DNA of 33,430 nucleotides. It comes from Acidimicrobiales bacterium. GTDB taxonomy: Bacteria; Actinomycetota; Acidimicrobiia; Acidimicrobiales; JBFJYB01. Positions 1,543 through 33,430 of the stretch are shown here, piece after piece; within the stretch, counting starts at the first letter, position 1, and each line of letters opens with the position of its first letter. The translations under genes and the position numbers were made by a program. The stretch covers positions 1 through 33,430 of the forward strand of contig JBFJYB010000001.1 in assembly GCA_041622835.1 (NCBI GenBank). Reading direction: 5' to 3'. A model generated the notes under the pieces. The model was not told the DNA's origin. It ran no database searches and saw only the letters and a program-made list of their open reading frames with translations.

Positions 1543-1640
1543 AGCCGGAGGGTAACGCCCACCCGTGGCCGGCCCGTCCCGGGCCGACCCGGCCGTCGCG
1601 CGCACCGTGAAACGGGGGTCGACCCGCCTAGCATGCATCC
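1543..1640. promoter_or_regulatory. Divergent intergenic region between the CPBP protease gene and ftsH (promoters expected)
   Basis: This rests only on geometry: two genes start back to back 98 nt apart. I could not call -10/-35 elements or a Shine-Dalgarno sequence for ftsH. Confidence 0.35.
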
Positions 1641-8979: not shown

Positions 8980-9086
8980 CCCACCGCGGGCCGACACCGC
9001 TACCGTGGATCCGGCCCGTCGAGCCCGCCCCGGCGGAGGCCGCACCCACCCATGATCCCGGCTCCCACCCCCATGACCCCGGCCCC

Positions 9087-10488: not shown

Positions 10489-10526
10489 ACTCGTGCGATG
10501 AGCTACCACGCCGGGTGGGCCGACTG

Positions 10527-13394
<2,868 letters not shown>

Positions 13395-18333: not shown

Positions 18334-19487
18334 GCCCCGAGCTCCCGGTAGAGGTCGGCGATCAGCGCCGCGGTGCGCTCCCAGGTGTAGGTCGCCGCCC
18401 GCTCCTGTCCGGTCCGGCCCAGGGCCTTGGCCGCCGGCTCGTCCTCGAGCAGCCCGCCCAGGGCGTCGGCGATCTGGTCGATCGACTCCGGGTCGACCAG
18501 GAGGCCGGTCCGTCCCGCCACCTCGGCGGTGGCGGTGTCGGTCGACGTGACGACCGGCGCTCCCTGGTACATGGCTTCGAGGACCGGGAGTCCGAACCCC
18601 TCCGAGAGGCTCGGGTAGCAGAAGACGGCTGCACCCGCGTACAGGCTGCGCAGATCGTCGTCGGGGACGAACCCGAGCCGGTGCAGCTCGACCCGCGACC
18701 GCAGATCGTCGACCGGCTCACCCCACCCTTCGGGGCCGACCAGCACCAGCGCCACGCTGCGGGGCGCGAGCCGCTCGAAGGCACGGACGAGCCGGCGCAG
18801 GTTCTTACGCGGCTCCTCGGTCCCGACCCAGAGGACGTAGCGGTCGGGCAACCCGTACCGGTAGCGGACGCCGGTCACCTCGGCCGGGGTGGCAACCGGC
18901 CCGCCGACCCCCCACGGAACCACCCGGAGCCGGTCCTCGGCGATGCCGTTGGCCGAGCAGTCGTCGGCCGACGCCTGGGACGGGCACATCACCAGGTCGG
19001 CGTGCCGCCGGGTGAGCTCGAGCGAACGGGTGAAGAAGGACTGGCGCGTGGCATGGTCGGGGTGACGCAGGTAGGCGAGGTCGTGGACGGTCACCATCAG
19101 CGGCGCCCGCGACGCCGCGATGGCCGGGCTGGTCGCGTGGACGACGTCGACCTCGCCGGTCGCCCGCTCGACCACGGGCCGGCGCAATCGGTGCCACGCC
19201 TCGTACATCGCCGCGCGGGGCAGCGGCAGCGACCGAACCGGGATCGACGGGCGCCAGGGCTCGGGAGGCAGAGCTCGATGGCGAGCGGCGACGCCGACCA
19301 GCTCGAGGTCGTCGTGGGCCCCGAGCGCAGCCACCGACTCGAGCGCGGCCACCGCGGTCCCACCCGGCACCCGGTGCCAGCACTGCTCGAGGGTGATCGC
19401 GACACGGGTGACCGGGGGGCCGATCTCGTGACGGCTCGGCTCGTGGCGGCTCGACTCGACCCGGGGCATCGAGTCGGAGTCTGACAT
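18330..19487 (-). CDS. GT4-family glycosyltransferase
   Basis: The start was placed at ATG 19487, with ATG 19469 as an alternative, inside track ORF 18330..19745. Motifs are VAITLEQCWHRVPGGTA and PSLSEGFGLPVLEAMYQGAPVV. Confidence 0.85.
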   Translation of the reverse strand: MSDSDSMPRVESSRHEPSRHEIGPPVTRVAITLEQCWHRVPGGTAVAALESVAALGAHDDLELVGVAARHRALPPEPWRPSIPVRSLPLPRAAMYEAWHRLRRPVVERATGEVDVVHATSPAIAASRAPLMVTVHDLAYLRHPDHATRQSFFTRSLELTRRHADLVMCPSQASADDCSANGIAEDRLRVVPWGVGGPVATPAEVTGVRYRYGLPDRYVLWVGTEEPRKNLRRLVRAFERLAPRSVALVLVGPEGWGEPVDDLRSRVELHRLGFVPDDDLRSLYAGAAVFCYPSLSEGFGLPVLEAMYQGAPVVTSTDTATAEVAGRTGLLVDPESIDQIADALGGLLEDEPAAKALGRTGQERAATYTWERTAALIADLYRELGA

Positions 19488-19573
19488 GTCCGGTGCGAGC
19501 GCCGCCGCCACCCGACCCGCGCGCTGCGCACCGGGCGGGTTGTCGGGGTCGCGGAAGCTACGCTCGACACTCG
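19488..19573. promoter_or_regulatory. Divergent intergenic region between the GT operon and fcl (promoters expected)
   Basis: This rests on geometry only: there is an 86-nt gap between back-to-back starts at 19487 (-) and 19574 (+). No motif was called. Confidence 0.35.
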
Positions 19574-20533
19574 ATGTCGACCGATCTCGCCGACGCCCGG
19601 GTGCTCGTGACCGGGGGAACCGGGTTCCTGGGGCAGGCAGTCTGCCGCCAGCTCGTCGAGCGCGACGCCTCGGTGATCGCACCGTCGTCGGCCCAGTACG
19701 ACCTGCGGGACACCGCCCAGGCCGAGGCCGCGTTCTCCGACACATCGCCCGACGTCGTGATCCACCTGGCGGCGCGGGTCGGCGGGATCGGCGCCAACCT
19801 CGACCGGCCGGGCGATCTCTACCTCGACAACCTCCGGTTGGGTACCAACGTCATCGACGCCGCCCTCCACGCCGGAACCGGCAAGGTCGTCGTCGTCGGC
19901 ACGATCTGCTCCTACCCGAAGTACACCGAGGTCCCCTTCCGCGAGGACTCGCTGTGGACGGGGTACCCCGAGGAGACCAACGCCCCCTACGGCATCGCCA
20001 AGCTCGCCCAGCTGGTGCATCTCCAGGCCAACCGGAGCCAGTACGGCCAGGTCGGCATCTACCTCATGCCCACCAACCTCTACGGCCCCGGCGACAAGTT
20101 CAGCCCCACGGTCTCCCACGTGATCCCGGCGCTGATCAAGAAGTGCGTCGACGCGGTCGCGCTGGGCCTCGACGAGATCCAGGTGTGGGGCACCGGCAGC
20201 GCGAGCCGCGAGTTCCTGTACGTCGACGACGCGGCCCGCGGGATCGTCCTGGCTACCGAGCGCTACGACGGCGCCGAGCCGGTCAACCTCGGCACCAACA
20301 ACGAGCTACCCATCAAGGAGCTGGTCGGGCTCGTCGCCGAGGCCGCCGGCTACGAGGGCCGCATCCGCTGGGACGACTCGAAGCCCGACGGCCAGCCCCG
20401 CCGAGCGGTCGACCCGAGTCGCGCCCGGGAGCTGTTCGGGTTCGAGGCGACGACGTCGTTCGAGGAGGGGCTGCGGGCCACCGTCGCCTGGTACGTCGCC
20501 AACCGGGACCTGGCCGAGACCCGCGACCGCTGA
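19574..20533 (+). CDS. fcl: GDP-L-fucose synthase (GDP-4-keto-6-deoxy-D-mannose 3,5-epimerase/4-reductase)
   Basis: ATG at 19574 lies inside track ORF 19493..20533. Motifs: VLVTGGTGFLG, HLAARVGGIGANLDRPGDLYLDNLRLGTNVIDAA, GTICSYPKYTEVPFREDSLWTGYPEETNAPYGIAKLA, NLYGPGDKF, VWGTGSASREFLYVDD. This is the classical Fcl/WcaG pattern. Confidence 0.88.
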   Translation: MSTDLADARVLVTGGTGFLGQAVCRQLVERDASVIAPSSAQYDLRDTAQAEAAFSDTSPDVVIHLAARVGGIGANLDRPGDLYLDNLRLGTNVIDAALHAGTGKVVVVGTICSYPKYTEVPFREDSLWTGYPEETNAPYGIAKLAQLVHLQANRSQYGQVGIYLMPTNLYGPGDKFSPTVSHVIPALIKKCVDAVALGLDEIQVWGTGSASREFLYVDDAARGIVLATERYDGAEPVNLGTNNELPIKELVGLVAEAAGYEGRIRWDDSKPDGQPRRAVDPSRARELFGFEATTSFEEGLRATVAWYVANRDLAETRDR

Positions 20534-20576: not shown

Positions 20577-21296
20577 ATGTTGCGCGCCACTACCGACCTC
20601 TCACCCGACGAGCTGGCTCCGATGCTCGAGCAGTGGGGCCCGTGGCGGCTCGAGATCGAGTTCTCGAACGGGTTGAATACGACCGATTTCGGCGTCCAGG
20701 AGCCCTTCATCCCCGAGCCGCTCGGCAAGATCCTGCGGGTCGGGGCGGCGGTCGACCTCGAGGAGTTCCGGGGTGGGCGGGCCATCGACATCGGGTACAA
20801 CATCGGCTACAACACGATCTACCTGGCCGAGACCTACGACATGTCGGTGACCGGTGTCGACATCGGGACCCGCCACAAGGAGGTGGCCGAGTTCCTGCTC
20901 GGAGCGACGACCCTCGCCGACCAGGTCGAGTTCGTCGTGGGCGACGCGACCACGTTCACGACCCCCGAGCCGGTGGACCTGGTCCTGCACTTCGGGACGC
21001 TCTACCACCTGCCCAACCCGCTGCTGGCCGTCGAGACCACGGCCCGCAACCTCCGGCCGGGCGGCCTGCTGGCCCTCGAGACCCAGATCTACATCGGCGA
21101 GGACCAGACACTGTCGAAGTACATCAACGGGTTCATGGGCGACGACACCAACTTCTGGGCCCTCAGCCGCCAGACCCTCCGACGCGTGCTCACCCACTAC
21201 GGGTTCGTCGACATCGAGGTCCTGTTCGAGACCGAGCCCGACTACATCGGCCACGACATGGCCAGGATCATCCTGATCGCTCGCCGGGCCGCCTGA
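20577..21296 (+). CDS. Class I SAM-dependent methyltransferase (DUF1698/CmoB-like architecture)
   Basis: The ORF is 239 aa. An N-terminal beta segment (WRLEIEFSNGLNTTDFG) precedes motif I AIDIGYNIGYNTIYLA, then VTGVDI, FVVGDA, VLHFGTLYHLPNP and LRPGGLLALET. The substrate is unknown. The genomic context suggests sugar O-methylation. Confidence 0.75.
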   Translation: MLRATTDLSPDELAPMLEQWGPWRLEIEFSNGLNTTDFGVQEPFIPEPLGKILRVGAAVDLEEFRGGRAIDIGYNIGYNTIYLAETYDMSVTGVDIGTRHKEVAEFLLGATTLADQVEFVVGDATTFTTPEPVDLVLHFGTLYHLPNPLLAVETTARNLRPGGLLALETQIYIGEDQTLSKYINGFMGDDTNFWALSRQTLRRVLTHYGFVDIEVLFETEPDYIGHDMARIILIARRAA

Positions 21297-21320: not shown

Positions 21321-22649
21321 TCACTCGGGCGTCGCCGTGCGGGGCTCGGCGAGGACGCCGTCCCAGTCGAGCCCGACGATCAGCTCCACCTCGCCGTCGA
21401 TCAGCTCGTCGACGGTCTCGATCTCGGCCTCGACCCCCAGCCAGCTCGCCAGCAGGCGCGCCGCGCTCCGACCTGGCTGGGTGGTGCGGATCACCGTGTC
21501 GGGTCGGCCGAAGGTGCCGGCGTCGCCGAACCCGACCACGTCGAAGCCGGCGGTGGCCAGCTCGTCGGCGACGGCCGCCCCCAGCCCCGAGGTCCCGGCC
21601 CCGTTGCTGACCAGCACCCGCACCGCCTCGGGTCGGGCGCCGCGGCCGGTGACGCCGCGGAAGACGTCGAACATGGCCGTGGCCTCGGGGCCTTCCTGGA
21701 GGCGCAGGACCTGCGAGCTGCCCAGCACGTCGTCGTAGACCGGCGGCACCATCAGCACGAGCGTGTCGGGCATGAAGGCCCGGAACCGATCACCCAGTCC
21801 GAGGATGTCGTTGGGCGTCAGCCGCTCGTCGACCACCAGGTGCTCGATCCCGACGTTGACCAGCTCGTTCCGCCGCCGGAAGTCACGCGCCCCCGTCGAC
21901 AGCGCCTGCTTCAGGACCGCGACCACGAACTCCTGCTGACGGTCGATCCTGGCCAGATCGGGCGTCACGTCGAGGTTCTGCCACTCACCGTCGACCCGCT
22001 GCTCCATGGCGCGCGACCGGACGTAGGCCAGCGCCTCGTCGGGGGTGAAGGTGTGCATCCCGGCCTGGTTGATCACCAGGCCGGTCCGGACGTCGCGGAC
22101 CGGGTTCTCGAGGAAGAGCGGCACGCCGCCCACCGTGTCGACCAGGTCGAGGAAGCCCTGGAAGTCGACCTGGAGGTAGTGGTTGACGGGGATGTCGAAG
22201 TTCTCCTCGATGGCCCGCACCAGCAGCTCGGGGCCCCCGATGGCGAGGGCGGCGTTGATTCGCTCCTCGTAGCGGGCATCGGGCAGCTCGACCACGAGGT
22301 CGCGGGGCAGCGACATGAGGTGCGCCTGGGTCGACGTGGGGTCGACCCGCAGCACCATCAGCGTGTCGGTGAGCTTGGTGTCGCCCCGGCCGATGACGAT
22401 GGCGCTGTCGGGGTCGAGGCCCTCGACCGAGTCGACGCCGATGAGAAGGAAGTTCAGTGGCTCGCCGGTCTGCACCTCCTCGCCGAGCACCGGGCCCAGG
22501 GCCACCCGGTTGAGCTTGTCCGCCTTGGACCCGGCAAAGTTCAAGGCGACGATCGCGAGCGCGCTCGACGCCGCCACGAGCACCCCGAGCAGGAGCAGGA
22601 ACCTTTGGGGCCAGGTGCGGCGCGACCGGAGTCGTCGGTGCGATGCCAT
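21321..22649 (-). CDS. LCP (LytR-CpsA-Psr) family glycopolymer-peptidoglycan ligase with LytR_C-type C-terminal domain
   Basis: ATG at 22649 (MASHRRLRSRRTWPQRFLLLLGVLVAASSALAIV, a TM anchor) lies inside track ORF 21321..22766. Motifs are NFLLIGVDS...DTLMVLRVDP...SLPRDL and a C-terminal VRVLVSNGAGTSGLGAAVADEL module. Confidence 0.88.
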   Translation of the reverse strand: MASHRRLRSRRTWPQRFLLLLGVLVAASSALAIVALNFAGSKADKLNRVALGPVLGEEVQTGEPLNFLLIGVDSVEGLDPDSAIVIGRGDTKLTDTLMVLRVDPTSTQAHLMSLPRDLVVELPDARYEERINAALAIGGPELLVRAIEENFDIPVNHYLQVDFQGFLDLVDTVGGVPLFLENPVRDVRTGLVINQAGMHTFTPDEALAYVRSRAMEQRVDGEWQNLDVTPDLARIDRQQEFVVAVLKQALSTGARDFRRRNELVNVGIEHLVVDERLTPNDILGLGDRFRAFMPDTLVLMVPPVYDDVLGSSQVLRLQEGPEATAMFDVFRGVTGRGARPEAVRVLVSNGAGTSGLGAAVADELATAGFDVVGFGDAGTFGRPDTVIRTTQPGRSAARLLASWLGVEAEIETVDELIDGEVELIVGLDWDGVLAEPRTATPE

Positions 22650-22711
22650 CGAGACGCCAACGCTACTGGGCTGTCCCCGCCGTTCGTGCCGCGGGCCGCG
22701 TCGACGGTCGC

Positions 22712-23557
22712 TCAGACCGACTCGGCGTCGCGCTCGAGCTCGACCAGCTCGAGGAAGGCGGCGCACAGCCGCGCTGCGACCGGACCGGGGGTGAAGGTCT
22801 GCTCGCCCAGGGCGGCGACCGGCACGACCCCGCGCGTCGTCGACGCTGCGACCACCTCGTCGGCGGCCTCGACCCGAGCGAGCGGGAAACGGCCGGTCCG
22901 GACCTCGATCCCCAGCATCCCGGCCACGTCGACGAGCGCCTCACGGGTTATCGAGCCCAACACTCCGAGGTCGAGCGACGGCAGCTCGAGCACCCCGTCG
23001 ACGATCCACCCGAGCGCGAAGGTCGGGCCCTCGAGGACCGTGCCGTCGGGTGAGACGAGCAGCGCGTCGTGGAAGCCGCCACGCTGGGCCTCGAGCGTGG
23101 CGGCCATGTTCGGCGCGTACGACGTGGTCTTGGCGCCGGTGAGCTCGGAGAAGTGCCCACCGGCGTGCCAGGGCGCAGATACCGGCAGGAAGCGGTAGGC
23201 GGGCGGGACGTCGTGGAGCTGCTCCCACAGGACGATGACTCGACCCGGGCTCTCGAAGAGCGGGTCGCGGCTGCCGGCGGTGACGATCACCCTCACGAAG
23301 CAGTCGCCGCCCGCACGGGCTTGCCGGCGGATCCACCCGCGGACCGCGTCCTCGTCGACCGGTGGCAGCTGGAGCTGGGCGAGGCTGCGCTGCAGGCGAG
23401 CGAGGTGCGGGTCCACCCGGAACGCCGAGCCGCCGTAGGACCGGAGCAGCTCGAAGGCTCCGTAGCCCCGCAGCAGGGCCCAGTCGAAGACCGAGATGAC
23501 CGCCTCGTCGTCACGGACGGGCTCACCGTCGACGAGCACTCGGGCGGCGGTGGTCAC
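22712..23557 (-). CDS. Fold-type IV PLP enzyme (class IV aminotransferase / aminodeoxychorismate-lyase-like)
   Basis: GTG at 23557 overlaps the upstream stop (GTGA). The protein is 281 aa. Motifs: SVFDWALLRGYGAFELLRSY, HLARLQRS, the candidate catalytic Lys in LTGAKTTSYAPNMAATLEAQRGGFHDALLV, then EGPTFALGWIV...LGSITRE. Specificity cannot be assigned. Confidence 0.8.
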   Translation of the reverse strand: MTTAARVLVDGEPVRDDEAVISVFDWALLRGYGAFELLRSYGGSAFRVDPHLARLQRSLAQLQLPPVDEDAVRGWIRRQARAGGDCFVRVIVTAGSRDPLFESPGRVIVLWEQLHDVPPAYRFLPVSAPWHAGGHFSELTGAKTTSYAPNMAATLEAQRGGFHDALLVSPDGTVLEGPTFALGWIVDGVLELPSLDLGVLGSITREALVDVAGMLGIEVRTGRFPLARVEAADEVVAASTTRGVVPVAALGEQTFTPGPVAARLCAAFLELVELERDAESV

Positions 23558-24408
23558 CGGACCGACGGGCCGGCCGCCTGAAGGCGGATCCGGGCCTCCT
23601 CGGCCCGCAGCATCTCGTAGATGTCGACGCAGGACGCCACGTGGTCCCGCCACCCCCCGGCCACCGGGAAGGACTCGACCGGTGGGGCGGGGTAGGGCTC
23701 TGGCTCGATCCCGGTGCTCTCGAGCACGGCGCGATACAGGTGACGATGGCGCCCGCCGAGGTTGTCGAGATCCAGGTCGGGCCGGGCCGGCCAGCTCAGC
23801 ATGGCCTGCTCGTAGCCCAGACCCAGCCGCTCGAGCGCCGCGGGGAACACCAGCTGAGGCTGATTTCGGAAGTCGGCGGCGTCGACGATGAAGTACGGGA
23901 TCTTCCGACGGCGACAGAGGTCGACCTGCGCCGCAAGCAGCTCCCACCCCGTCTCGACCAGCGGGAACCCCGGGTCCTCGCCGGCTTCGAGCTTCTTCGC
24001 CCGCCGCGACGCGATGCTGAGCCGGGGGTCGCGGATCAAGAAGGCGACCGGCCAGTCGGTCAGCCTGGTCAGGAGCTCGAAGTGGTCGCCCACCTGGTAC
24101 GGCATCTCCTTGACGACCAGGCCGGCGCGCTCGTGGGTCCAGTCGCCCTCGCCGAGATCGACGGGATCGGCGAGCTGCCCGCCGACGGCGTCGAGACCGG
24201 CGCCGTCGAAGTAGCAGATCTCGAAGGGCTCGTGGCTGTAGAACCGCACCGACGGCTCTCCCCACAGCACGCGGGCGAACGCGGTCGAGCTGCATCGGGG
24301 CGGCGAGACGATGACGCGGACGTCCGAGTAGCCGGCCAGCGCCCGGCGGATGGGCGCAGGGATCGCTCGCGGCCCACTGTGCTGGGTTCGGCGCGGAGGT
24401 CGAGACAT
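23554..24408 (-). CDS. Sulfotransferase-fold P-loop protein
   Basis: The ORF is 284 aa. A PAPS 5'-phosphosulfate-binding-type loop (VIVSPPRCSSTAFARVL) and a 3'-phosphate-type motif (FLIRDPRLSIASR) occur at the spacing expected for sulfotransferases. The gene is translationally coupled to the class IV aminotransferase gene. Confidence 0.7.
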   Translation of the reverse strand: MSRPPRRTQHSGPRAIPAPIRRALAGYSDVRVIVSPPRCSSTAFARVLWGEPSVRFYSHEPFEICYFDGAGLDAVGGQLADPVDLGEGDWTHERAGLVVKEMPYQVGDHFELLTRLTDWPVAFLIRDPRLSIASRRAKKLEAGEDPGFPLVETGWELLAAQVDLCRRRKIPYFIVDAADFRNQPQLVFPAALERLGLGYEQAMLSWPARPDLDLDNLGGRHRHLYRAVLESTGIEPEPYPAPPVESFPVAGGWRDHVASCVDIYEMLRAEEARIRLQAAGPSVR

Positions 24409-24520: not shown

Positions 24521-25297
24521 TCAGGGCTCGGGGCGGAGATGGATGACGTCGCCGGCCGCCACCTCCACGTCTCCCTCGGAGGTGGCGATGACGAGATGTC
24601 CGGTGGGGCCGATCCCGGCGGCGGCGCCGATCACCGGACCGTCACCGATCTCGGCCCGTACCCGCCGTCCGAGGGTCGCCGACCGCTCGACGTAGCCGGC
24701 CCGCAGCTCCCCCACCCCACCGGCGCGAAGCCGCGAATACCACCCATCGAGCGCTCGCAGGTAGGCGACCAGCAGCTCGTGGCGGTCGACCGGTCGGCCG
24801 GCCTCGGCGGCGAGCGACGTGGCATCGAGATCGGGCGGATACCAGGTCAGGTTGCAGCCGACGCCGATCACCACTGCGGCGAGACGGTCGCCGTCGAGGA
24901 TCGAGTCCGCCAGGACACCCGCGAGCTTGACCGGCTTCCCGTCGCGCTCGACCACCAGGTCGTTCGGCCACTTGATCCTGGTGGCGACCCCCGCGACGGT
25001 CTCGCAGGCCTCGGCCAGCGCCAGTGCGGCAGCCGCCATCATCCAGTGCGCCACGGCCACCCCGATCTCGGGACGCACCAGCACCGACGCGAGCAGGGCC
25101 GAGCCCGGCGGTGCCTCCCACCGACGGTCGAGCCTCCCCCGCCCGGTCACCTGGTGGTCGGCGACGAGCACCGCTCCGTCGGGCGCGCCGCGGCGAGCGG
25201 CGGCGAGCAGATCGTCGTTGGTCGAGCCGGTCTCGGCCACCCACTCGACGCGACCGAAGCGCGTCCCGGCCAGCTCTCGGCTCACGCGGTCGGGCAT
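24521..25297 (-). CDS. birA: Biotin--[acetyl-CoA-carboxylase] ligase (group I, no N-terminal HTH)
   Basis: ATG at 25297 lies inside track ORF 24521..26806. Motifs are ETGSTNDDLLAAA, ADHQVTGRGRLDRRWEAPPGSALLASV and IKWPNDLV. The protein is 258 aa and starts directly with the catalytic domain. Confidence 0.9.
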   Translation of the reverse strand: MPDRVSRELAGTRFGRVEWVAETGSTNDDLLAAARRGAPDGAVLVADHQVTGRGRLDRRWEAPPGSALLASVLVRPEIGVAVAHWMMAAAALALAEACETVAGVATRIKWPNDLVVERDGKPVKLAGVLADSILDGDRLAAVVIGVGCNLTWYPPDLDATSLAAEAGRPVDRHELLVAYLRALDGWYSRLRAGGVGELRAGYVERSATLGRRVRAEIGDGPVIGAAAGIGPTGHLVIATSEGDVEVAAGDVIHLRPEP

Positions 25298-25369
25298 CGA
25301 CCACCACCTCCCCACGGCGGCACCTCGGCGCGTTGGCGTCCGACCCCCCGTTGTCTGCCACCATATGGC
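25298..25369. promoter_or_regulatory. Divergent intergenic region between birA and accA (promoters expected)
   Basis: This rests on geometry only: there is a 72-nt gap between back-to-back starts. No motif was called. Confidence 0.35.
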
Positions 25370-27109
25370 GTGCTCTCGAAGATCCTGATCGCCAACCGAG
25401 GCGAGATCGCGGTGCGGGTCATCCGCGCCTGCCGCGACCTCGGCATCCCGAGCGTGGCCGTCTACTCCGAGCTCGACGAGCACGCCCTGCACACCAAGCT
25501 CGCCGACGAGGCCTACGCACTGGGAGGGCAGACCGCCGCCGAGTCGTACCTCGACACCGATGCCATCCTCGACGCCATCGCCCGCAGTGGGGCCGACGGC
25601 GTGCACCCCGGATACGGCTTCTTCTCCGAGAACGCCGACTTCGCCAGGGCCATCACCGCCCGGGGGGTCACCTTCATCGGTCCGCCGCCGGAGGCGATCG
25701 AGATCATGGGCGACAAGCTCTCGTCCCGGGCCGCGGCCGAGCGGTCCGGCGTCTCCGGGGTCCCGGGCAGCGCCGACCTGGTCACCTCGCCGGACGAGGT
25801 GGCCGCGTTCGGCGCCGAGTTCGGGTACCCGCTGGCCATCAAGGCGGCCTACGGGGGCGGCGGTCGGGGAATGAAGGTGGTCGAGACCGAGGCGAGCATC
25901 GCCGCGTCGATGGAGTCGGCGAGGCGCGAGTCGCTGGCCTACTTCGGCCGCGACGAGCTGTACGTGGAGCGCTACCTCAGCAAGCCCCGTCACGTCGAGG
26001 TTCAGGTGCTGGCCGACACCCACGGGAACTGCGTGCACCTCGGGACGCGAGACTGCTCGGCCCAGCGACGGCACCAGAAGCTCATCGAGGAGGCGCCGGC
26101 ACCGGCCATCGCTCCCGACGTGCTGTCGGCGATGGGCCAAGCCGCCGTCGACGTCGCGACCGGGTGCGACTACGTCAACGCCGGCACCGTCGAGTTCCTC
26201 TACGAGAACGGCGAGTTCTACTACCTCGAGATGAACACCCGTCTCCAGGTGGAGCACCCGGTCACCGAGATGGTCACCGGCCTCGACCTCGTCGAGCAGC
26301 AGATCCGGGTCGCGTCGGGCGACGCCCTCGGCTTCGAGCAGGGTGACATCACCCTGCGCGGTCACGCCATCGAGGTCCGCATCAACGCCGAGGACCCGGC
26401 CGAGGGCGCGTTCTTGCCGTCTCCGGGGAAGATCACGGCCCTGACCATGCCCAACGGGTACGGCACGCGGTTCGACGCCGGGTACGAGAGCGGCGACGAG
26501 ATCAGCCAGTTCTACGACAACCTGCTCGGGAAGCTGATCTGCTGGGGCCCCGACCGCGATGCCGCCATCCGCCGGACCCGCCGAGCCCTCGACGAGCTGC
26601 GGGTCGAGGGGGTGGCGACGACCATCCCGGCCGACCAGGCGATCCTCGCCCATCCCGACTTCGCAGCCGTCGAGCACTCCACGAGGTGGGTCGAGGAGAT
26701 GCTCGACCTGACCGGCGTGGCGGCGAAGCCGCCGCCGCCGGTCGCCGACGACGAGGAGCGGATACGCCGTGAGATCGACGTCGAGGTCAACGGCAAGCGC
26801 TTCCACGTCGCCATGTGGGTGCCAGACCAGTCGAGCCAGCGGGCGGCGCGTCCTCGCCGCTCAGGGGTCGGCGCCGGGGCCCGCGGCGGTGGCGGCAGCG
26901 GCGACATCACCGTCCCCATGCAGGGAACGATCGTCAAGGTCCTGGTGGCGGTGGGCGACGAGGTCGAGGTCGGTCAGCCGGTGGTCGTGCTCGAGGCCAT
27001 GAAGATGGAGAACAACATCGGCGCCGACAAGGCCGGTCGGGTGAGCGAGGTGCGGGTGGCGCCGGGCGACACCGTGGGCGGCGGTGACGTCGTGGTCCGG
27101 ATCGAGTGA
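25370..27109 (+). CDS. accA: Acyl-CoA carboxylase alpha subunit (biotin carboxylase + biotin carboxyl carrier domain)
   Basis: GTG at 25370 (VLSKILIANRGEIAVRVIRACRDLGI) lies inside track ORF 24539..27109. The ATP-grasp region contains YPLAIKAAYGGGGRGMKVV, EMNTRLQVEHPVTE and a C-terminal biotinyl domain with VVLEAMKMEN. The protein is 579 aa. Confidence 0.95.
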   Translation: MLSKILIANRGEIAVRVIRACRDLGIPSVAVYSELDEHALHTKLADEAYALGGQTAAESYLDTDAILDAIARSGADGVHPGYGFFSENADFARAITARGVTFIGPPPEAIEIMGDKLSSRAAAERSGVSGVPGSADLVTSPDEVAAFGAEFGYPLAIKAAYGGGGRGMKVVETEASIAASMESARRESLAYFGRDELYVERYLSKPRHVEVQVLADTHGNCVHLGTRDCSAQRRHQKLIEEAPAPAIAPDVLSAMGQAAVDVATGCDYVNAGTVEFLYENGEFYYLEMNTRLQVEHPVTEMVTGLDLVEQQIRVASGDALGFEQGDITLRGHAIEVRINAEDPAEGAFLPSPGKITALTMPNGYGTRFDAGYESGDEISQFYDNLLGKLICWGPDRDAAIRRTRRALDELRVEGVATTIPADQAILAHPDFAAVEHSTRWVEEMLDLTGVAAKPPPPVADDEERIRREIDVEVNGKRFHVAMWVPDQSSQRAARPRRSGVGAGARGGGGSGDITVPMQGTIVKVLVAVGDEVEVGQPVVVLEAMKMENNIGADKAGRVSEVRVAPGDTVGGGDVVVRIE

Positions 27110-27122
27110 CGCGACCCGGTCG

Positions 27123-27632
27123 TCACGGCTGGCGCCAGTCCTCGCGGCCGGCGCCGACGTGCACGACGACGGTCCCCCCGACCCGGTCGGGGAGACCGCG
27201 CCTCGTGACCGGGTCGAGCACTGCGCTCAGGTAGATCGCCAGCGCCAAGAGCGGTCCGAAGAACTGTCCGAACACGAGCAGTGCGCTGGCCACGACGAGA
27301 CTGCGCCACAGCGCCCGCTCGACACGGGGGTTGGCGCCGGTGCGGAAGTCGGCGACCCGGATGCCGACCGCCAGCTTCCCGACGGTCTGGCCGCGCCATG
27401 CGACCATCGCCGTCTCGTAGGCGACGAAGGCGACGGTGATCACGATCGTCACCCACGCCGGCACCGTCACCTCGTCCCCCGAGCGCTCGGCGGTGGGGAT
27501 CCCGAGGGCCAGCCAGAGCGTCATCGGCACGATCAGGTAGTCGATGACGCGGGCGATCCCCCGCTGTGGCACCGAGGCCAGCACGTCGCCGGCCGGAGGA
27601 ACGCCATCGGCGGGGACCGGCTCCATCCTCAC
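27123..27632 (-). CDS. RDD-family membrane protein
   Basis: The sequence PQRGIARVIDYLIV, several TM helices and GLPDRVGGTVVV fit the RDD domain. The likely start is ATG 27626, with GGGAGG 5 nt upstream on the minus strand. GTG 27632 is the track start. Confidence 0.75.
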   Translation of the reverse strand: MRMEPVPADGVPPAGDVLASVPQRGIARVIDYLIVPMTLWLALGIPTAERSGDEVTVPAWVTIVITVAFVAYETAMVAWRGQTVGKLAVGIRVADFRTGANPRVERALWRSLVVASALLVFGQFFGPLLALAIYLSAVLDPVTRRGLPDRVGGTVVVHVGAGREDWRQP

Positions 27633-29163: not shown

Positions 29164-31170
29164 ATGTTGCGACCACTCACGCTCGTCGCCGTGGCCGCCG
29201 TCGGCGTCGCGGCGTACCCGCTCCCCGTAGTGGCCGAGCAGGTCGACGCACCGGCTGCCATCCAGCCCGAGACCGAGCCTCGGCTCAGCGCCGCGGCGCG
29301 GGCGACCGACGCTGACGGCGACGGGGTGACCGAGGCACTGGCTCGCCAGATCGGCCTCAGCACCGCCGGTGCGCCGGCCACCATCGGCGTGATCGCACTG
29401 CTCGGCGAGACCGGCACCGTCGCCGCAGCCCAGGAGGCGGTTCCGAGCTTGCGCGACGTGCGCGCCTTCGAGCCAGCCACCGCCTTCTCGGCTCGGGTGC
29501 CGGTGGCCGACGTCGAGCGGCTCAGCCAGGTGCCGGGGGTCGAGCTGGTCGAGTGGGACGCACCCGTCCACGCCGCGAACGACCTCGCGACCCGCTTCGG
29601 CGGGGTCGACGCCGTGGTCGACGGCCGCGGCTACACCGGCGACCGCGACGGCTCGGAGACCACGTACTCCCGCAACGACACGGTGGCCGCCGTCCTCGAC
29701 ACCGGGATCGACGTGTCTCACCCGGACCTCGACGGCGGGAAGGTCATCGCCTTCGTCGACTGCGTGGGCGGCTCGTGCACCCCCACGCCGGCCTTCGACG
29801 ACGACCCGACCGGGCACGGCACGCACGTCGCCGCCACCCTGGCCGGCACCGGTGACGGCACCGCCGCCTACCGCGGCGTGGCGCCGGGAGCGGCCCTCGT
29901 CGGCATCAAGGTCCTGAACGGTGCCGGCGACGGGATCGTCGGCGATCTCCGGCGCGGCATCGACTGGGCCGTCGCCAACCGCGGTGCCTACGGGATCAAG
30001 GTGTTGAACCTCTCGGTCCAAGGCGCGGACTGCCAGGCCAACGCGGCGCTCACCGATGCCATCGAGACCGCCTTCCGCAGGGGCCTCCTCGTGGTGGTCG
30101 CCGCCGGCAACCGTGGCCCGAACCCTTGCTCGGTCACCTACCCGGGTGACGTCGCCGAGGCGCTCACCGTCGGCTCGGTCAGAGATCCGGGTGAGGGGGG
30201 CTGGTCGATGGAGCTCACCTCCGGGCGGGGACCCACGGCGAGCGGGCGGACCAAACCCGACGTGGTGGCGCCCGGCGTGGCGATCCGGTCGGCCAAGCCG
30301 GGAGGCGGATACCACAACAAGTCCGGCACGAGCATGGCGACGCCCTACGTCGCCGGCCTGGCGCTGCTGCTCATCGACGCCCGGCCCGACGCGACGGCCG
30401 CCCAGCTGTTCGGGGCCATCGTCGACACGGCCTCGAACTTCGGGGGGCTGGCGACACCCAACGACACCTACGGGACCGGACGGGTGGACGCCGAAGCCGC
30501 GGTCGCCGCCATGGCGGTGGCCTTCGCCTTCGGCAAGGTCGACGACGTCGTGATCATCGGCGACTGGGACGGCGACGGCATCTCGACGCCTGGCATCCAG
30601 CGGGGCAACCTCTTCTATCTGCGGAACCGGAACTCGGGAGGCAAGGCCGACATCGTGTTCGCCTACGGCCGGACCGGTGACGTGCCGGTGGTCGGTGACT
30701 GGGACGGCGACGGCGTCGACACGATCGGTGTCCGGCGGGGAAACGTCTTCTACCTGCGGAACAAGAACACGACCGGTGACGCCGACATCGTCCTCGGGTA
30801 CGGCAAGGCCACCGACACCCCTGTGGTCGGCGACTGGGACGGCAACGGCACCGACACCTTCGGCGTCCGCCGCGACAACCGGTTCTACCTCCGCAACACG
30901 AACACGACCGGCGTCGCCAACATCGTCCTCGCCTACGGCAAGCCCGACGACACCGCCGTGGTCGGCGACTGGGACGGCAACGGCACCGACACCTTCGGCG
31001 TCCATCGCGACGGCCGGTTCCTGCTGCGCAACTCGAACACGTCGGGTCCGGCCCGGGTGGCCGTCGCCTTCGGCGAGGCTGACGACGTGCCGATCATCGG
31101 AGACTGGAACGGCGACAGAACCGACGATCTCGGCGTGCGCGACGGGCGAACCCACCGGCTGCTCCTCTGA
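29164..31170 (+). CDS. Secreted subtilisin-like (S8) serine protease with C-terminal FG-GAP-like repeat domain
   Basis: The ORF is 668 aa. It has a signal peptide (MLRPLTLVAVAAVGVAAYPLPVVAE) and a pro-region. The catalytic triad contexts are VLDTGID (Asp), HGTHVAATLAG (His) and GTSMATPYVAGLALL (Ser). The C-terminus carries 4.8 copies of a 45-aa GDWDG(D/N)G repeat. Confidence 0.9.
   Translation: MLRPLTLVAVAAVGVAAYPLPVVAEQVDAPAAIQPETEPRLSAAARATDADGDGVTEALARQIGLSTAGAPATIGVIALLGETGTVAAAQEAVPSLRDVRAFEPATAFSARVPVADVERLSQVPGVELVEWDAPVHAANDLATRFGGVDAVVDGRGYTGDRDGSETTYSRNDTVAAVLDTGIDVSHPDLDGGKVIAFVDCVGGSCTPTPAFDDDPTGHGTHVAATLAGTGDGTAAYRGVAPGAALVGIKVLNGAGDGIVGDLRRGIDWAVANRGAYGIKVLNLSVQGADCQANAALTDAIETAFRRGLLVVVAAGNRGPNPCSVTYPGDVAEALTVGSVRDPGEGGWSMELTSGRGPTASGRTKPDVVAPGVAIRSAKPGGGYHNKSGTSMATPYVAGLALLLIDARPDATAAQLFGAIVDTASNFGGLATPNDTYGTGRVDAEAAVAAMAVAFAFGKVDDVVIIGDWDGDGISTPGIQRGNLFYLRNRNSGGKADIVFAYGRTGDVPVVGDWDGDGVDTIGVRRGNVFYLRNKNTTGDADIVLGYGKATDTPVVGDWDGNGTDTFGVRRDNRFYLRNTNTTGVANIVLAYGKPDDTAVVGDWDGNGTDTFGVHRDGRFLLRNSNTSGPARVAVAFGEADDVPIIGDWNGDRTDDLGVRDGRTHRLLL
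30523..31167 (+). repeat. In-frame tandem repeat, period exactly 135 bp (45 aa), 4 full copies plus a 35-aa partial copy
   Basis: Copy starts are at 30523, 30658, 30793, 30928 and 31063. The consensus is (F/L)AYGKxxDxPVVGDWDG(D/N)GxDTxGVRRxNxFYLRNxNTTGxAxIV. The GDWDGDG motif is a Ca-binding-type FG-GAP/VCBS-like loop. Confidence 0.9.
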
Positions 31171-31250
31171 GCGTCGCTGTGCCTTCGACGGACCGTCGTA
31201 GCGACCGCAGTAGGCTCGTCTGACCCGAGAACCGACCTCACCCCCACCCC

Positions 31251-32024
31251 ATGGCCCGCTCCGTCATCGTCCACTACCACCTGTTCAAGAACGCAGGCTC
31301 CTCGGTCGAGACCATCCTGAAGGAGAACTTCGGGGCGGCATGGCTCAGCCACGACGGCCCCGATCCGGCCGGCGCCGTGTTCTCTCACGAGCTGGCCCGG
31401 CTCATCGGGGAGCACCCCGACGTGTCGGCCGTGTCGTCGCACCAGGTTCGCCCACCGGTGCCTGCGATCCCCGGGGTCGAGGTCCTGCCGGTCGTGTTCC
31501 TTCGCCACCCTCTCGACCGGGTGCAGTCCATCTACGACTTCGACCGCCGTCGCGGTCCGGTGACCCCCGCCGCAGAGCTCGCGGCCGAGCACGACTTCGC
31601 CGACTACGTCGACGTCCTGCTCGACCGGCCGGGCATCCTGGTTCGCAACTTCCAGGTCAGGGTGCTGACCGACGCCTGGGACTACGATCGCCGCCTGGCG
31701 GCCCGCCTGCCCCTGGCCCAGCACCTGGAGCGGGCGCTGGCCTTCGTCGACTCGCTCCCGGCCGTGGGGCTCGTCTGCCAGTGGGACCTATCCTGGAGCC
31801 AGCTGGCCCCCTGGATCCAGCGCTCCTTCCCGGATTTTCACGTGACGACATCCGCGCACTTCAACGCCGATCCCCATCGCCCCGAGGGCCTCCCCGAACG
31901 CCTGGACCGGCTGCGCGATCGCCTGGGCGACGCGCGGTACCAGCGGCTCGAGGACGCCAATACGGCCGACTTCGAACTGTACGAACGGGCCAGGGCGCGC
32001 CTGGGCGTCGTCGCCGAGGGCTGA
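31251..32024 (+). CDS. Sulfotransferase (family-2-like)
   Basis: The ORF is 257 aa. The N-terminal VIVHYHLFKNAGSSVETIL matches the H-x-P-K-x-G-(G/S)-(T/S) 5'-PSB loop of family 2 sulfotransferases. FLRHPLDRVQSIY matches their R-x-P-x-x-R-x-x-S 3'-PB motif. Confidence 0.75.
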   Translation: MARSVIVHYHLFKNAGSSVETILKENFGAAWLSHDGPDPAGAVFSHELARLIGEHPDVSAVSSHQVRPPVPAIPGVEVLPVVFLRHPLDRVQSIYDFDRRRGPVTPAAELAAEHDFADYVDVLLDRPGILVRNFQVRVLTDAWDYDRRLAARLPLAQHLERALAFVDSLPAVGLVCQWDLSWSQLAPWIQRSFPDFHVTTSAHFNADPHRPEGLPERLDRLRDRLGDARYQRLEDANTADFELYERARARLGVVAEG

Positions 32025-32031
32025 GGCGATC

Positions 32032-33430
32032 GTGGGCCTGCTCGTCGTCGGGATGCACCGCAGCGGCACGTCCGCGGTCGGGCGCGCCCTCGACGCGCTC
32101 GGGCTGTCCACCGGCCCACCCGACCAGCTCATCGGAGCCGACGCGACCAACCGCATGGGGCACTGGGAGGTGCGGCCGGTGACCGACCTCGACGACGAGG
32201 TGCTGGCCGCGATCGACAGCCACTGGGCCGCGCCCGCCCAGCTCGACCCCGACCGACTCCGTGAGCTGGCGCGCGGGCCGTTGGGCGAACGGGCCAGGGC
32301 CCTCGTAGCGGAGCTGCTCCCCGGACGAAGGTGGTTCCTGAAGGATCCCAGGCTGTCGGTGCTGCTGCCGTTTTGGTTCGAGGTCCTGGGCACCGACAAC
32401 GCGGTGCTCCACGTGGTCCGACATCCCGTCGAGGTGGCCGGATCGCTGGCGGCCCGCAACTCGATGGCTGCCGAGGTGGGCAGGGCTCTGTGGGAGCGCT
32501 ACACGCGCCAGGCGCTCATCGACGCGGCCGGCGCCGCATCTCACGTGGTCTCCTACGAGCGGCTCATCGAAGCGCCCGGGGCGACGACCGAGGCGCTGGC
32601 CCGCTTCCTCGAGGCCAACGATCTCCTCGACAGCGAGCCGCCGAGCGCGAGCCGGGTGATCTCCGGCGCCGAGCGCCACCACCACATCCACGCCGGCGCG
32701 GGCCGCGAGGTGCTCAGCTCCGAGCAGCGCCAGCTGCTCGACCTGGTGACCGCGGCCGCCGACGGCCCCGCTCCCACTCCGGACCTGGTGCCGGACGAGA
32801 CGCCAGGGCTCAGCTTCGGCTTCCGGGTCGGCGCCGACGTCGCCGGCCTCGCGCGGGTCGATCTGGCCCGGATCTCTCACGAGCTCGCCGAGGCGCGAAC
32901 CGCGGCCGACTCGACCCTGACCGCCCTCCACGCCGAGCTCGCCGAAGTCAGGCGCCACGCTCAATCGGAGCTCGAGGAGATCGACCGCCTCACGGTCGAG
33001 ACCCACCATCTGCGGGACGAGCTGTCGGTCGCGTATCGGACCTCAGCGGCGCGCACCGACCTCGAGGCAACGACCCGCGACCTACAACTTGCGCTGGCCG
33101 AGGCCGCCAGCACCGCGTCGCGCGTCGGCGCCCTCGAGGACGAGCTGCACCGCGTCGAGCAGCGTCTCCTCACCGAGATGGGGTCGAGCTCGTACCAGGC
33201 GATCGCGATGTACCGGCGCGTCGCGACCCAGCTGCTGCCCCCGCCCACCCGGCGAGGTCGCGCCTATCGCAGGACGCTGGGTGTGGCCCGGCGCGGCGCC
33301 GCCGGCGCCATCGGCCAGGCCCAGCGGATGCGCGCCAGGCGGGCGGCGCGCCAGGGACCGGACCCGGCGACCTGGCCCCCGGGCGTGGACATGCGGCCGA
33401 GCGACTCGCCCCTCGCGTCCATCGTCATCC
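32032..33430 (+). CDS. Multidomain protein: N-terminal sulfotransferase domain + long coiled coil; continues beyond the right edge
   Basis: This ORF is not in the track because it has no stop in the window. My translation from GTG 32032, 7 nt after the previous stop, is VGLLVVGMHRSGTSAVGRALDALGL... (5'-PSB loop GMHRSGTS), ...WFLKDPRLSVLLPFW..., VVRHPVEVAGSL (3'-PB type). Roughly 105 aa of heptad-like Ala/Glu/Leu/Arg-rich sequence follow (LTALHAELAEVRRHAQSELEEIDRLTVETHHLRDEL...ALEDELHRVEQRLLTE). The window ends at ...PLASIVI, which resembles the first strand of a GT2 domain; that last point is inference. Confidence 0.75.
   Translation, partial: MGLLVVGMHRSGTSAVGRALDALGLSTGPPDQLIGADATNRMGHWEVRPVTDLDDEVLAAIDSHWAAPAQLDPDRLRELARGPLGERARALVAELLPGRRWFLKDPRLSVLLPFWFEVLGTDNAVLHVVRHPVEVAGSLAARNSMAAEVGRALWERYTRQALIDAAGAASHVVSYERLIEAPGATTEALARFLEANDLLDSEPPSASRVISGAERHHHIHAGAGREVLSSEQRQLLDLVTAAADGPAPTPDLVPDETPGLSFGFRVGADVAGLARVDLARISHELAEARTAADSTLTALHAELAEVRRHAQSELEEIDRLTVETHHLRDELSVAYRTSAARTDLEATTRDLQLALAEAASTASRVGALEDELHRVEQRLLTEMGSSSYQAIAMYRRVATQLLPPPTRRGRAYRRTLGVARRGAAGAIGQAQRMRARRAARQGPDPATWPPGVDMRPSDSPLASIVI

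Follow-up and report, generated by a model that had tools for sequence, protein, structure and literature searches.

Tandem sulfotransferase genes, one fused to a long helix and the start of a glycosyltransferase, at the head of a probable glycan-sulfating cassette in an Acidimicrobiales bacterium

The window analysed here is a stretch of 33,430 nucleotides from an Acidimicrobiales bacterium, and it closes on two tandem genes for sulfotransferase-like proteins, here called gene 1 and gene 2 (Table 1). An earlier reading made from the sequence alone had placed these genes 7 nt apart and recognized PAPS-binding signatures in each. Both the coordinates and the motifs were confirmed, and the motif residues form invariant columns in family alignments. 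A GAGG at 32023-32026 overlaps the stop codon of gene 1 and lies 5 nt 5' of the GTG start of gene 2. A scan of 30900-32200 found no promoter-like and no terminator-like sites, and because the spacer carries neither consensus the two genes probably form one operon. In L001, a metagenome-assembled genome of a related member of the Acidimicrobiia, the counterpart genes overlap by 4 nt.

Table 1. Coordinates of the gene pair, its motifs and domains, and other genes of interest in the window
Feature	Position	Strand	Description
SDR reductase/epimerase and GDP-mannose 4,6-dehydratase (Gmd)	10500..12466	+	GDP_Man_Dehyd E=3.7e-137
LCP ligase gene	21321..22766	-	LytR_cpsA_psr + LytR_C; Pfam E=1.7e-35
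Class IV aminotransferase gene	22712..23557	-	Pfam Aminotran_4 E=6.6e-44
Third sulfotransferase gene	23554..24408	-	284 aa; Sulfotransfer_5 PF19798, 34.4 bits vs cut-off 23.2
Gene 1	31251..32024	+	ATG 31251 to TGA 32024; free-standing 257-aa sulfotransferase, divergent Sulfotransfer_2 member
HLFKNAGSS, aa 10-18 of gene 1	31278..31304	+	5'-phosphosulfate-binding (PSB) loop; K13 is the conserved PSB lysine
RHPLDRVQS, aa 85-93 of gene 1	31503..31529	+	3'-phosphate-binding (PB) motif (PxxRxxS); R85, P87, R90, S93 invariant
Spacer	32025..32031	+	7 nt between gene 1 and gene 2; sequence reading
Gene 2	32032..33430	+	GTG start, first 466 codons; Sulfotransfer_3 domain, long helix, GT2 start; cut by contig end
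Sulfotransfer_3 catalytic domain, aa 1-260 of gene 2	32032..32811	+	PF13469 E=1.5e-9, 38.9 bits vs cut-off 27
GMHRSGTS, aa 7-14 of gene 2	32050-32073	+	RxG-type PSB loop
RHPVEVAGS, aa 130-138 of gene 2	32419-32445	+	3'-PB Arg…Ser motif
Putative coiled-coil spacer, aa 266-383 of gene 2	32827..33180	+	One unbroken 118-residue helix; AF2 DSSP
First residues of GT2 domain (…SPLASIVI)	33415..33430	+	Alignment to L001 and L003 homologs

Profile searches place gene 1 among sulfotransferases through its family and not on its own. The protein itself had no Pfam match at E<=1, falling below every threshold, and no NCBIfam match, whereas 20 of 39 aligned homologs matched PF03567 (Sulfotransfer_2) with a best E=3.6e-9; gene 1 therefore belongs to a divergent subfamily at the edge of that model. 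In PF03567 enzymes the PSB loop is defined by a conserved lysine and the PB consensus is PxxRxxS (PMC11625862), and gene 1 has both. Across the 39-sequence family alignment (A1) the columns H8, H10, K13, A15, G16, R85, P87, R90 and S93 are invariant. The seven best Foldseek matches to its AF2 model (pLDDT 93.7) were HS 2-OST and 6-OST structures, (HS, heparan sulfate) with probability 1.0 and TM about 0.5, and the family profile also matched HS 6-OST 5t03 (E=0.006). The model thus bears out the suspected sulfotransferase fold and points to one resembling the carbohydrate O-sulfotransferases. The HS 2-O- and 6-O-sulfotransferases (PDB 4ndz, 3f5f, 5t03, 5t05) share the PSB lysine loop and PxxRxxS motif with gene 1 and act on polysaccharides, but identity is only 14-17%, and gene 1 encodes a bacterial, cytoplasmic protein without a membrane anchor. 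The invariant S63-H64 may be put forward as a candidate for its catalytic base. Relatives of gene 1 are also present in Pleurocapsa.

The N-terminal domain of gene 2 exceeds the threshold of its Pfam family, and most of it was modeled by AF2 at pLDDT above 90. Its top Foldseek matches are TPST1/2, the sulfotransferase domains of CurM and OLS, 3-OST, StaL and Stf0. In the gene 2 alignment (A2) G7, S11-S14, R130 and S138 are invariant and R10 is at least 90% conserved; the domain also has an invariant E46 and a KDPR motif (aa 104-107). The rhizobial enzyme NodH, compared by family and description, is likewise a Sulfotransfer_3 protein with an RxG-type PSB loop. Mycobacterial Stf0-Stf3 come from the same phylum and have the same PAPS-dependent fold, but Stf0 ranks only 22nd in the Foldseek list and is not the closest match, and these enzymes, which make sulfolipid-1, sulfated glycopeptidolipid and sulfomenaquinone, act on trehalose, lipids or menaquinone and lack a polymerase fusion.

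It is very improbable that the two proteins have kept a sulfotransferase fold without being active PAPS-dependent sulfotransferases, serving instead as binding modules or using another nucleotide donor. Neither family varies in its 5'-PSB and 3'-PB residues, and the top structural matches, all with probability 1.0, are PAPS-dependent sulfotransferases. A census of 79 species-representative loci found by gene 1 additionally placed an APS kinase gene within 10 kb in 11 of them, which we estimate to be some 30-fold more than chance would give for a gene present in one copy, although none of the 11 is an Acidimicrobiia locus. The contrary signs are the missing profile match of gene 1 itself, Foldseek TM-scores for both genes of only about 0.45-0.5, the presence of P-loop kinases lower in the gene 2 list, and a window that, as already noted in the sequence-only reading, holds no PAPS-synthesis gene (a tblastn search for APS kinase gave no match).

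Gene 2 is no simple stand-alone sulfotransferase: it is a truncated multidomain protein. The helix that follows the catalytic domain is poor in Pro and Gly, has a heptad-like pattern in a scan, and would span ~17 nm if straight. Residues 284-379 have weak matches to coiled-coil families (YabA, SMC, golgin), and the modeled helix probably forms a coiled coil. At the contig end, SPLASIVI lines up with 'DVSVVIPVHGN' in the homolog from L001 and 'VPVASIVIPVYG' in that from L003, the start of Pfam Glycos_transf_2, and in the L001 ortholog (40% identical) the GT2 domain begins at the same point. Full-length relatives of 1093-1327 aa continue with GT2 and GT4 modules. These include proteins of 1114 aa in L003 (Sulfotransfer_3, coil, GT2, GT4), of 1093 aa, and of 1327 aa in the cultured Litorimonas sp. 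WD9-15. Judging from these orthologs, gene 2 would also have a GT4 module; no GT4 domain and no Wzm/Wzt ABC transporter lies within the window. Since only the first 466 codons of gene 2 lie in the window, the GT4 module, the transporter and the PAPS supply are extrapolated from relatives that are 40-54% identical.

Comparison of the neighbourhood across genomes revealed that the pair forms a cassette conserved across several phyla. A scan of one representative genome per bacterial or archaeal species found a sulfotransferase pair tied to a polymerase at no fewer than 585 loci; the groups matched include Acidimicrobiia, Proteobacteria and Cyanobacteria. Cultured carriers include Litorimonas sp. 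WD9-15, Thiorhodococcus mannitoliphagus, Ideonella spp., Thioalkalivibrio sulfidiphilus and Halioxenophilus aromaticivorans. In the 79-locus census a GT2 polymerase module was found in 49 species-level loci, a GT4 module in 46, a Sulfotransfer_3 (ST3) domain in 18 and Wzt in 13. APS kinase, Wzm/Wzt and GDP-6-deoxyhexose genes occur in the polysaccharide loci of the relatives. The gene order in L003-L005 is GT2, Wzm, Wzt, Sulfotransfer_2 (ST2), ST3/GT2/GT4, DUF6077 and Bac_transf, and L095 combines Wzm/Wzt and Bac_transf with a protein of ST3-GT2 type. In L091 the order is APS kinase, Wzm, a Wzt bearing the carbohydrate-binding module Wzt_C, two genes for methyltransferases, two for ST2 and GT2/GT4/MT. 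The two sulfotransferase domains share a single ORF, 546 or 555 aa long, in L069 (Polynucleobacter) and L032 (Thiorhodococcus), and the fused ORF of L069 matched gene 2 at E=7e-23 and gene 1 at E=5e-45 in BLASTP. These fusions suggest that the two sulfotransferases are functionally linked. The role in glycan biosynthesis first proposed for the tandem pair is thus upheld by the glycosyltransferase fused to gene 2 and by the polysaccharide loci in which relatives reside.

We propose, with a probability of about 0.6, that the two genes, as its first two cistrons, open a cassette for polysaccharide assembly in the cytoplasm and that this cassette sulfates the glycan it builds. A sulfated surface glycan is thus a probable product of the organism. 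We infer PAPS to be the donor and a glycan the acceptor. Gene 1 would act as a soluble PAPS-dependent carbohydrate O-sulfotransferase. In gene 2 a PAPS-dependent Sulfotransfer_3 domain would be held by a helix of ~118 residues away from a two-module glycosyltransferase polymerase, which would elongate a lipid-linked glycan, probably rich in 6-deoxyhexose, at the cytoplasmic face of the membrane. Both sulfotransferase activities would target one polymer. The domain at the end of the helix would most plausibly act on the non-reducing end of a chain that has grown to sufficient length, giving a sulfate cap comparable to those of Klebsiella WbbB and ORF6(O7), which add Kdo or methyl-phosphate, and gene 1 would place a second sulfate at the non-reducing end or on internal residues. 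Export would take place through a Wzm/Wzt ABC transporter encoded past the contig end, and in this monoderm host an LCP ligase could then attach the polymer to the wall.

In K. pneumoniae, WbbB of O12 and ORF6 of O7 are single-polypeptide terminators with a coiled-coil ruler and two polymerase GT modules, and they function in ABC-transporter-dependent O-antigen assembly (PMC11231755). Relatives of gene 2 resemble them in domain order, with a modifying domain at the N terminus followed by a long coiled coil and by two GT modules at the C terminus, in the Wzm/Wzt and initiating phosphoglycosyl transferase of their loci, and in a spacer length that varies between orthologs. They differ in that a sulfotransferase takes the place of the GT99 Kdo transferase or methyltransferase-kinase as modifying domain, in their GT2+GT4 polymerase, in the lack of a carbohydrate-binding module on the Wzt of the nearest complete relatives, and in that the Acidimicrobiia host is a monoderm. 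WbdD of E. coli O9a and K. pneumoniae O3, a stand-alone kinase-methyltransferase with a coiled-coil ruler, is mirrored in format by two stand-alone ST3 proteins with long coiled coils, P0147 (616 aa) and P0145 (788 aa; L093, among GT4/GT2 polymerases), which would have sulfate chemistry instead of methyl-phosphate and share no sequence similarity with it. In its fullest form the proposal makes sulfate a new cap chemistry, with ST3 at the tip of the coiled-coil ruler of a GT2+GT4 polymerase and helped by a Sulfotransfer_2 partner, and makes the Acidimicrobiia product the first sulfated, length-controlled wall glycopolymer of monoderm Actinomycetota, exported without a cap-reading carbohydrate-binding module; we offer this as speculation and regard it as quite unlikely. 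Mann, Kimber and Whitfield reportedly predicted 'new chemistries' for terminators in a census of 2019 (Glycobiology 29:822), and sulfotransferase terminators may already be included in it.

The sulfate may also serve as decoration and not as a cap. If both enzymes sulfated internal residues of every repeat unit, the product would be a polyanionic glycan resembling teichoic acid or a glycosaminoglycan, and the helix would serve only for oligomerisation or docking; we consider this possible but unlikely. The mark of cap-dependent export, the carbohydrate-binding module Wzt_C, is absent from the Wzt beside the closest complete cassettes (244 aa in L003, 248 aa in L095) and occurs only in L091/L009 and L013, loci that have ST2 but no ST3-coil fusion. 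Since ST3 in L069 and L032 is fused directly to ST2 and apart from the polymerase, sulfotransferase function there appears independent of ruler geometry, as decoration would allow. Two distinct sulfotransferases would suit several sulfation positions, and the sulfated repeat unit of synechan is the product of a Synechocystis cluster, xss, with two sulfotransferase genes (PMC8205485), although that cluster uses a Wzx/Wzy pathway, lacks a sulfotransferase-polymerase fusion and makes the exopolysaccharide of a diderm. The long coiled coil between catalytic domain and polymerase GTs argues for capping instead, being the hallmark of terminators in characterised ABC-transporter-dependent systems (PMC11231755). 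So does the behavior of the spacer, which ranges widely (434 to 1011 aa from ST3 to GT2 among orthologs) and expands by in-frame repeats, such as the 54-nt repeat present in 3.8 copies in the L001 coil, and so does L091, where a homologous polymerase is fused to a methyltransferase domain and the Wzt carries Wzt_C.

The sequence-only reading had also placed the pair at the edge of a glycan locus that lies upstream. That locus is real and contains five complete glycosyltransferase genes, Gmd, an Fcl-like SDR, a methyltransferase and the LCP gene, but the pair is not simply its edge. In the interval of ~8.5 kb from the LCP gene to the pair there are six genes, Aminotran_4, Sulfotransfer_5, BPL, AccA, RDD and Lpd, and after them S8, directly 5' of gene 1; the order of the five-gene housekeeping block from BPL to S8 is kept in L001. 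More probably, the pair opens a cassette of its own that runs beyond the contig end. The S8 protease, of a secreted type, is found immediately upstream of the pair in the window, L001 and L002. The SDR and Gmd could supply GDP-6-deoxyhexose to the cassette; in Litorimonas (L080) Gmd and SDR genes lie directly 3' of the homologous cassette.

The third sulfotransferase gene, grouped with the pair in the earlier reading, does encode a member of a sulfotransferase family, but the proposed link to glycans was not borne out. Its stop codon is overlapped by the GTG start of the aminotransferase gene (GTGA), pointing to translational coupling, and this gene pair is absent from syntenic L001. The protein has 472 homologs, of which those listed are mostly 50-60% identical. 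No glycan genes were found beside the homologs in three other genomes examined, and two of the three contexts are near sulfate or anion transporters. This gene probably falls outside the glycan module.

In monoderms, it is typically LCP enzymes that join polyprenol-carried, ABC-transporter-dependent polymers to peptidoglycan. The LCP gene of the window is syntenic with one in L001 (41% identity), and its product may reasonably be regarded as a candidate ligase for joining the polymer to the wall. There is nonetheless a real possibility, though short of an even chance, that the product is not linked to peptidoglycan but is an exopolysaccharide, secreted or capsular, or else a glycan anchored to lipid or carried by the S-layer or another surface protein, in which case the LCP gene 8.5 kb upstream would be unrelated. 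The housekeeping genes between LCP gene and pair in both the window and L001 fit such a product, as does the adjoining secreted-type protease. The same cassette is additionally shared with many diderm bacteria, where its product would be O antigen or capsule.

Precedents for bacterial glycan sulfation include the PAPS-dependent enzymes NodH, LpsS and KpsS, the last of which sulfates a fucosyl residue of capsular polysaccharide (PMC11625862), but all three are stand-alone proteins without a coiled coil or fused glycosyltransferase. Sulfotransferase genes in ABC-type polysaccharide clusters have already been noted for cyanobacteria, so the combination seen here is less unprecedented than first stated (PMC8205485). 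For Actinomycetota, the searchable literature yielded no description of a wall glycopolymer bearing sulfate.

Animals and algae are well-known sources of sulfated polysaccharides, which are considered rare in bacteria. With a sulfotransferase pair tied to a polymerase at so many loci, glycan sulfation among environmental bacteria may far exceed the few structures described. Should the coil-end sulfotransferase prove to be a terminator, the molecular-ruler model of how chain length is controlled would gain a new chemistry. For the Actinomycetota, the cassette points to an anionic wall polymer with sulfate instead of phosphate, which could matter where phosphate is scarce, and the several cultured carriers make the idea directly testable.

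Alignment with its orthologs shows that gene 2, the second member of the sulfotransferase pair at the 3' end of the window, encodes only part of a far larger enzyme. The contig stops 466 codons into the gene, whose last residues, SPLASIVI, align with the start of the GT2 domain in the orthologs. The syntenic ortholog in L001, a locus from an Acidimicrobiia MAG, is 40% identical and extends further, into a clear GT2 domain, until it too is cut by the end of its contig. Complete relatives of 1093 aa, 1114 aa (loci L003 and L005) and 1327 aa (L080, Litorimonas sp. WD9-15) are laid out as Sulfotransfer_3, linker or coil, GT2 and GT4; the closest relative with full context (L007) was left out of this comparison because its gene 2 ortholog is apparently frameshifted. 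In the AlphaFold model of gene 2, residues 266-383 form a single unbroken helix after the sulfotransferase domain, a stretch that a simple scan found to be free of Pro and Gly with a heptad-like pattern, and that gave weak coiled-coil family matches only. Two other relatives of gene 2 (P0125 and P0137, 652-665 aa) have cupin-8/JmjC-type hydroxylase domains (PF13621, PF08007) together with an N-terminus that resembles Sulfotransfer_3.

Gene 2 starts 7 nt 3' of gene 1, with a GAGG upstream of it that overlaps the gene 1 stop codon, and the homologs of the two genes in L001, the closest relative, overlap by 4 nt. No promoter-like or terminator-like sequence lies between them by a consensus scan of the surrounding region, a result that says nothing in an actinobacterium of high GC (window GC 72%). 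The two genes are most likely co-transcribed.

The N-terminus of gene 2 matches Pfam Sulfotransfer_3 at 38.9 bits (curated cut-off 27). In an alignment of 39 sequences, G7, S11, G12, T13 and S14 of the 5'-phosphosulfate-binding (PSB) loop GMHRSGTS are invariant, as are N40, E46, K104/P106/R107 (KDPR), W115, and R130 and S138 of the 3'-phosphate-binding motif RHPVEVAGS. Residues 1-260 are modeled as a confident globular domain (pLDDT mostly >90) and its best matches in structure are PAPS-dependent sulfotransferases without exception, namely TPST1/2, the sulfotransferase domains of CurM and olefin synthase, 3-OST, StaL and Stf0. We take the invariant Glu that follows the PSB loop, together with the mid-domain Lys, to fit the Glu-base/Lys arrangement of the TPST2 clade. 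Gene 1 has no Pfam or NCBIfam match of its own, NCBIfam offered nothing useful for any of the three window sulfotransferases, and single-sequence searches of genes 1 and 2 against PDB sequences gave spurious matches only. Among its 177 homologs, Sulfotransfer_2 is matched by 20 of 39 aligned members, and the family profile weakly matches heparan sulfate 6-O-sulfotransferase (E=0.006). The very confident AlphaFold model (pLDDT 93.7) has heparan sulfate 2-O- and 6-O-sulfotransferases as its top structural matches (probability 1.0). Its invariant residues, K13 in the PSB loop and P87, R90 and S93 in PxxRxxS, are the features that define PF03567, a PSB lysine and PxxRxxS (reviewed in PMC11625862). 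The third gene, proposed together with the pair in the sequence-only reading, exists and matches Pfam Sulfotransfer_5 above the cut-off, and the four PAPS-binding motifs read in genes 1 and 2 are all where they had been placed. Neither a non-sulfotransferase P-loop family nor a loss of PAPS residues was found, so the assignment of all three genes as sulfotransferases stands.

When one genome was scanned per species, at least 585 loci encoded a relative of gene 1; the best 79 come from Acidimicrobiia, Alpha-, Beta- and Gammaproteobacteria, Cyanobacteria and others. No more than 10 kb away from their gene 1 homologs, a GT2 polymerase module occurs at 49 of the 79 loci (and at 35 of the 49 loci with full flanks), a GT4 polymerase module at 46, a Sulfotransfer_3 domain at 18, Wzt at 13 and APS kinase at 11. 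By our own estimate rather than a computed control, chance would place an APS kinase that near a random gene at far fewer than 1% of loci, and of the indirect evidence that PAPS may be the donor for the cassette sulfotransferases this enrichment is the strongest. Both domains are joined in single ORFs, Sulfotransfer_3 first and Sulfotransfer_2 second, in Polynucleobacter (L069, 9122-10762, 546 aa) and Thiorhodococcus (L032, 3229-4896, 555 aa), an order opposite to that of the genes in the window; the same spacing recurs at about nine species-level loci. The Polynucleobacter ORF matches gene 2 at E=7e-23 and gene 1 at E=5e-45 in BLASTP. Such fusion argues that genes 1 and 2 would work on the same substrate. 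As examples, L003-L005 carry GT2, Wzm, Wzt, Sulfotransfer_2, Sulfotransfer_3/GT2/GT4, DUF6077, Bac_transf, GT2 and a second ABC pair; L095 carries a Sulfotransfer_3-GT2 protein, Wzm/Wzt and Bac_transf; and L080 carries Sulfotransfer_2, the 1327-aa protein, Gmd and an SDR. Our main reading, to which we give a probability of about 0.6, is that the cassette encodes a glycan polymerase with one built-in and one partner sulfotransferase. The window stops just where it matters most, and what we say beyond the folds and architecture of genes 1 and 2 we infer.

The genes of the window, which is a complete contig of 33,430 bp, were called from a frame-specific GC3 plot and Pfam scans and are listed in the table.

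Genes called in the window, with coordinates and strand
Feature	Position	Strand	Remarks
CAAX protease	742-1638	-	
FtsH	1641-3608	+	
DUF5719	4049-~5780	-	
GT2	5785-9180	-	1131 aa
GT4	9361-10488	+	
SDR	10500-11486	+	
Gmd	~11498-12466	+	
CofD, CofE	to 14093	+	
Unknown ORF	14260-14931	-	223 aa
GT4	14961-~16250	-	
SDR	16253-17290	-	
GT4	17218-18333	-	
GT4	18330-19745	-	
Fcl-like	19493-20533	+	
Methyltransferase	20577-21296	+	
LCP	21321-22766	-	
Aminotran_4	22712-23557	-	GTG start
Sulfotransfer_5	23554-24408	-	third sulfotransferase
BPL	24530-~25300	-	biotin protein ligase
AccA	25370-27109	+	start near 25370
RDD	27123-27632	-	
Lpd	27691-~29100	-	
S8 protease	29164-31170	+	
Gene 1 (Sulfotransfer_2-like)	31251-32024	+	ATG to TGA, 257 aa
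Gene 2 (Sulfotransfer_3)	32032-33430	+	GTG start, cut by contig end

The pair had been placed at the edge of an LCP/glycosyltransferase locus, and its being the mere end of that upstream locus was rejected as the simplest reading, since the genes in between form a housekeeping block with synteny in L001. There the order is that of the window (LCP, BPL, AccA, RDD, Lpd, S8, Sulfotransfer_2, Sulfotransfer_3/GT), with 76% identity in AccA and 78% in Lpd, and this shared order sets the pair apart from the LCP/glycosyltransferase region by conserved housekeeping genes. Probably the pair is the start of a second glycan cassette, the rest of which would lie past the end of the contig. Genes for the GDP-6-deoxyhexose precursor lie upstream of the pair in the window and beside the cassette in Litorimonas, and a functional link between them and the cassette is plausible. 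DUF5719 and GT2 on the minus strand (4049-9180), with FtsH, Gmd, CofD/CofE (fbiA/fbiB-like), LCP and AccA, recall a conserved actinobacterial cell-envelope core region, which we tentatively liken to the mycobacterial whiB2-fbiAB-rmlD-lcp1-accA3 region. With CofE on one side and a GT4 gene on the other, the ORF at 14260-14931 shows a very strong coding signal (GC3 0.95) and has no Pfam or NCBIfam match. Long spurious ORFs are typical of 72% GC DNA; the longest AccA ORF (24539-27109, plus strand, 856 aa) carries a false N-terminal extension of ~273 aa, over which the biotin protein ligase is encoded on the opposite strand.

The third sulfotransferase had also been drawn into the glycan system, in which we do not count it because its homologs lie away from glycan genes in three other genomes; in two of these, sulfate or anion transporters are nearby. 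L001 lacks both this gene and Aminotran_4, which in the window are inserted between LCP and BPL. The Aminotran_4 start codon overlaps the Sulfotransfer_5 stop codon (GTGA), which suggests that the two may be translationally coupled. That they form a conserved fused unit was not supported, with no fusion among the 120 best of 472 Sulfotransfer_5 homologs. These homologs are abundant and highly conserved, those listed being mostly 50-60% identical.

Both enzyme folds are known families, and sulfotransferase genes have already been noted in ABC-type polysaccharide clusters in cyanobacteria (PMC8205485). The terminator, ruler and polymerase design is also well characterised. The open literature searched describes no sulfotransferase in terminator position fused to a GT2 and GT4 polymerase, a point that the 2019 terminator census of Mann, Kimber and Whitfield may pre-empt; nor did the searches find a description of obligate pairing of such a fusion with a Sulfotransfer_2 partner, or a report of a sulfated wall glycopolymer in Actinomycetota or of Acidimicrobiia sulfotransferases.

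In characterised ABC-transporter-dependent O-antigen systems, a coiled-coil molecular ruler carries a chain terminator at its far end (PMC11231755). Terminator, coil and two polymerase GT modules form one polypeptide in WbbB of Klebsiella pneumoniae O12 and in ORF6 of O7, WbdD of Escherichia coli O9a is a separate coiled-coil terminator protein, and capped chains alone are exported, by way of a module of Wzt that binds carbohydrate (PMC11231755). The WbbB layout recurs in gene 2 and its orthologs, where a sulfotransferase takes the terminator position, and that of WbdD recurs in stand-alone proteins with a Sulfotransfer_3 domain and a long coiled coil (P0147 of Tepidamorphus gemmatus, and P0145 in L093). 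The neighbours of the L093 protein (788 aa) are four or five very large multidomain GT4+GT2 proteins in a row, Gmd and a Sulfotransfer_1 gene, and no Wzm/Wzt was found within 10 kb. The distance from Sulfotransfer_3 to GT2 ranges from 434 to 1011 aa among the orthologs, and in the coil of the L001 ortholog a 54-nt (18-aa) unit is repeated in frame and in tandem (11637-11869, 3.8 copies, 83% matches); this repeat is absent from gene 2 in the window, which points to a spacer length evolving by repeat expansion.

The Sulfotransfer_3 domain of gene 2 would then add a sulfate cap at a set chain length, an idea favoured by these WbbB- and WbdD-like layouts, the variable spacer, the L001 repeat and the proteobacterial locus L091, and one that we nonetheless hold tentatively and consider rather doubtful. 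Its main rival is that sulfate decorates internal residues. Two observations speak against the cap: the transporters beside the closest complete cassettes have no carbohydrate-binding module, and Sulfotransfer_3 is fused in some genomes to Sulfotransfer_2 and not to a spacer. On the favourable side, the L091 homolog of the polymerase includes a methyltransferase domain, and the Wzt of this locus has a Wzt_C carbohydrate-binding module. That locus (also L009; 4832-13904) further holds APS kinase, Wzm, two methyltransferases, two tandem Sulfotransfer_2 paralogs that are 52% identical, and GDP-sugar genes beside the 1013-aa GT2/GT4/methyltransferase protein. L091 is a good candidate for an experimentally tractable O antigen that would be both capped and sulfated.
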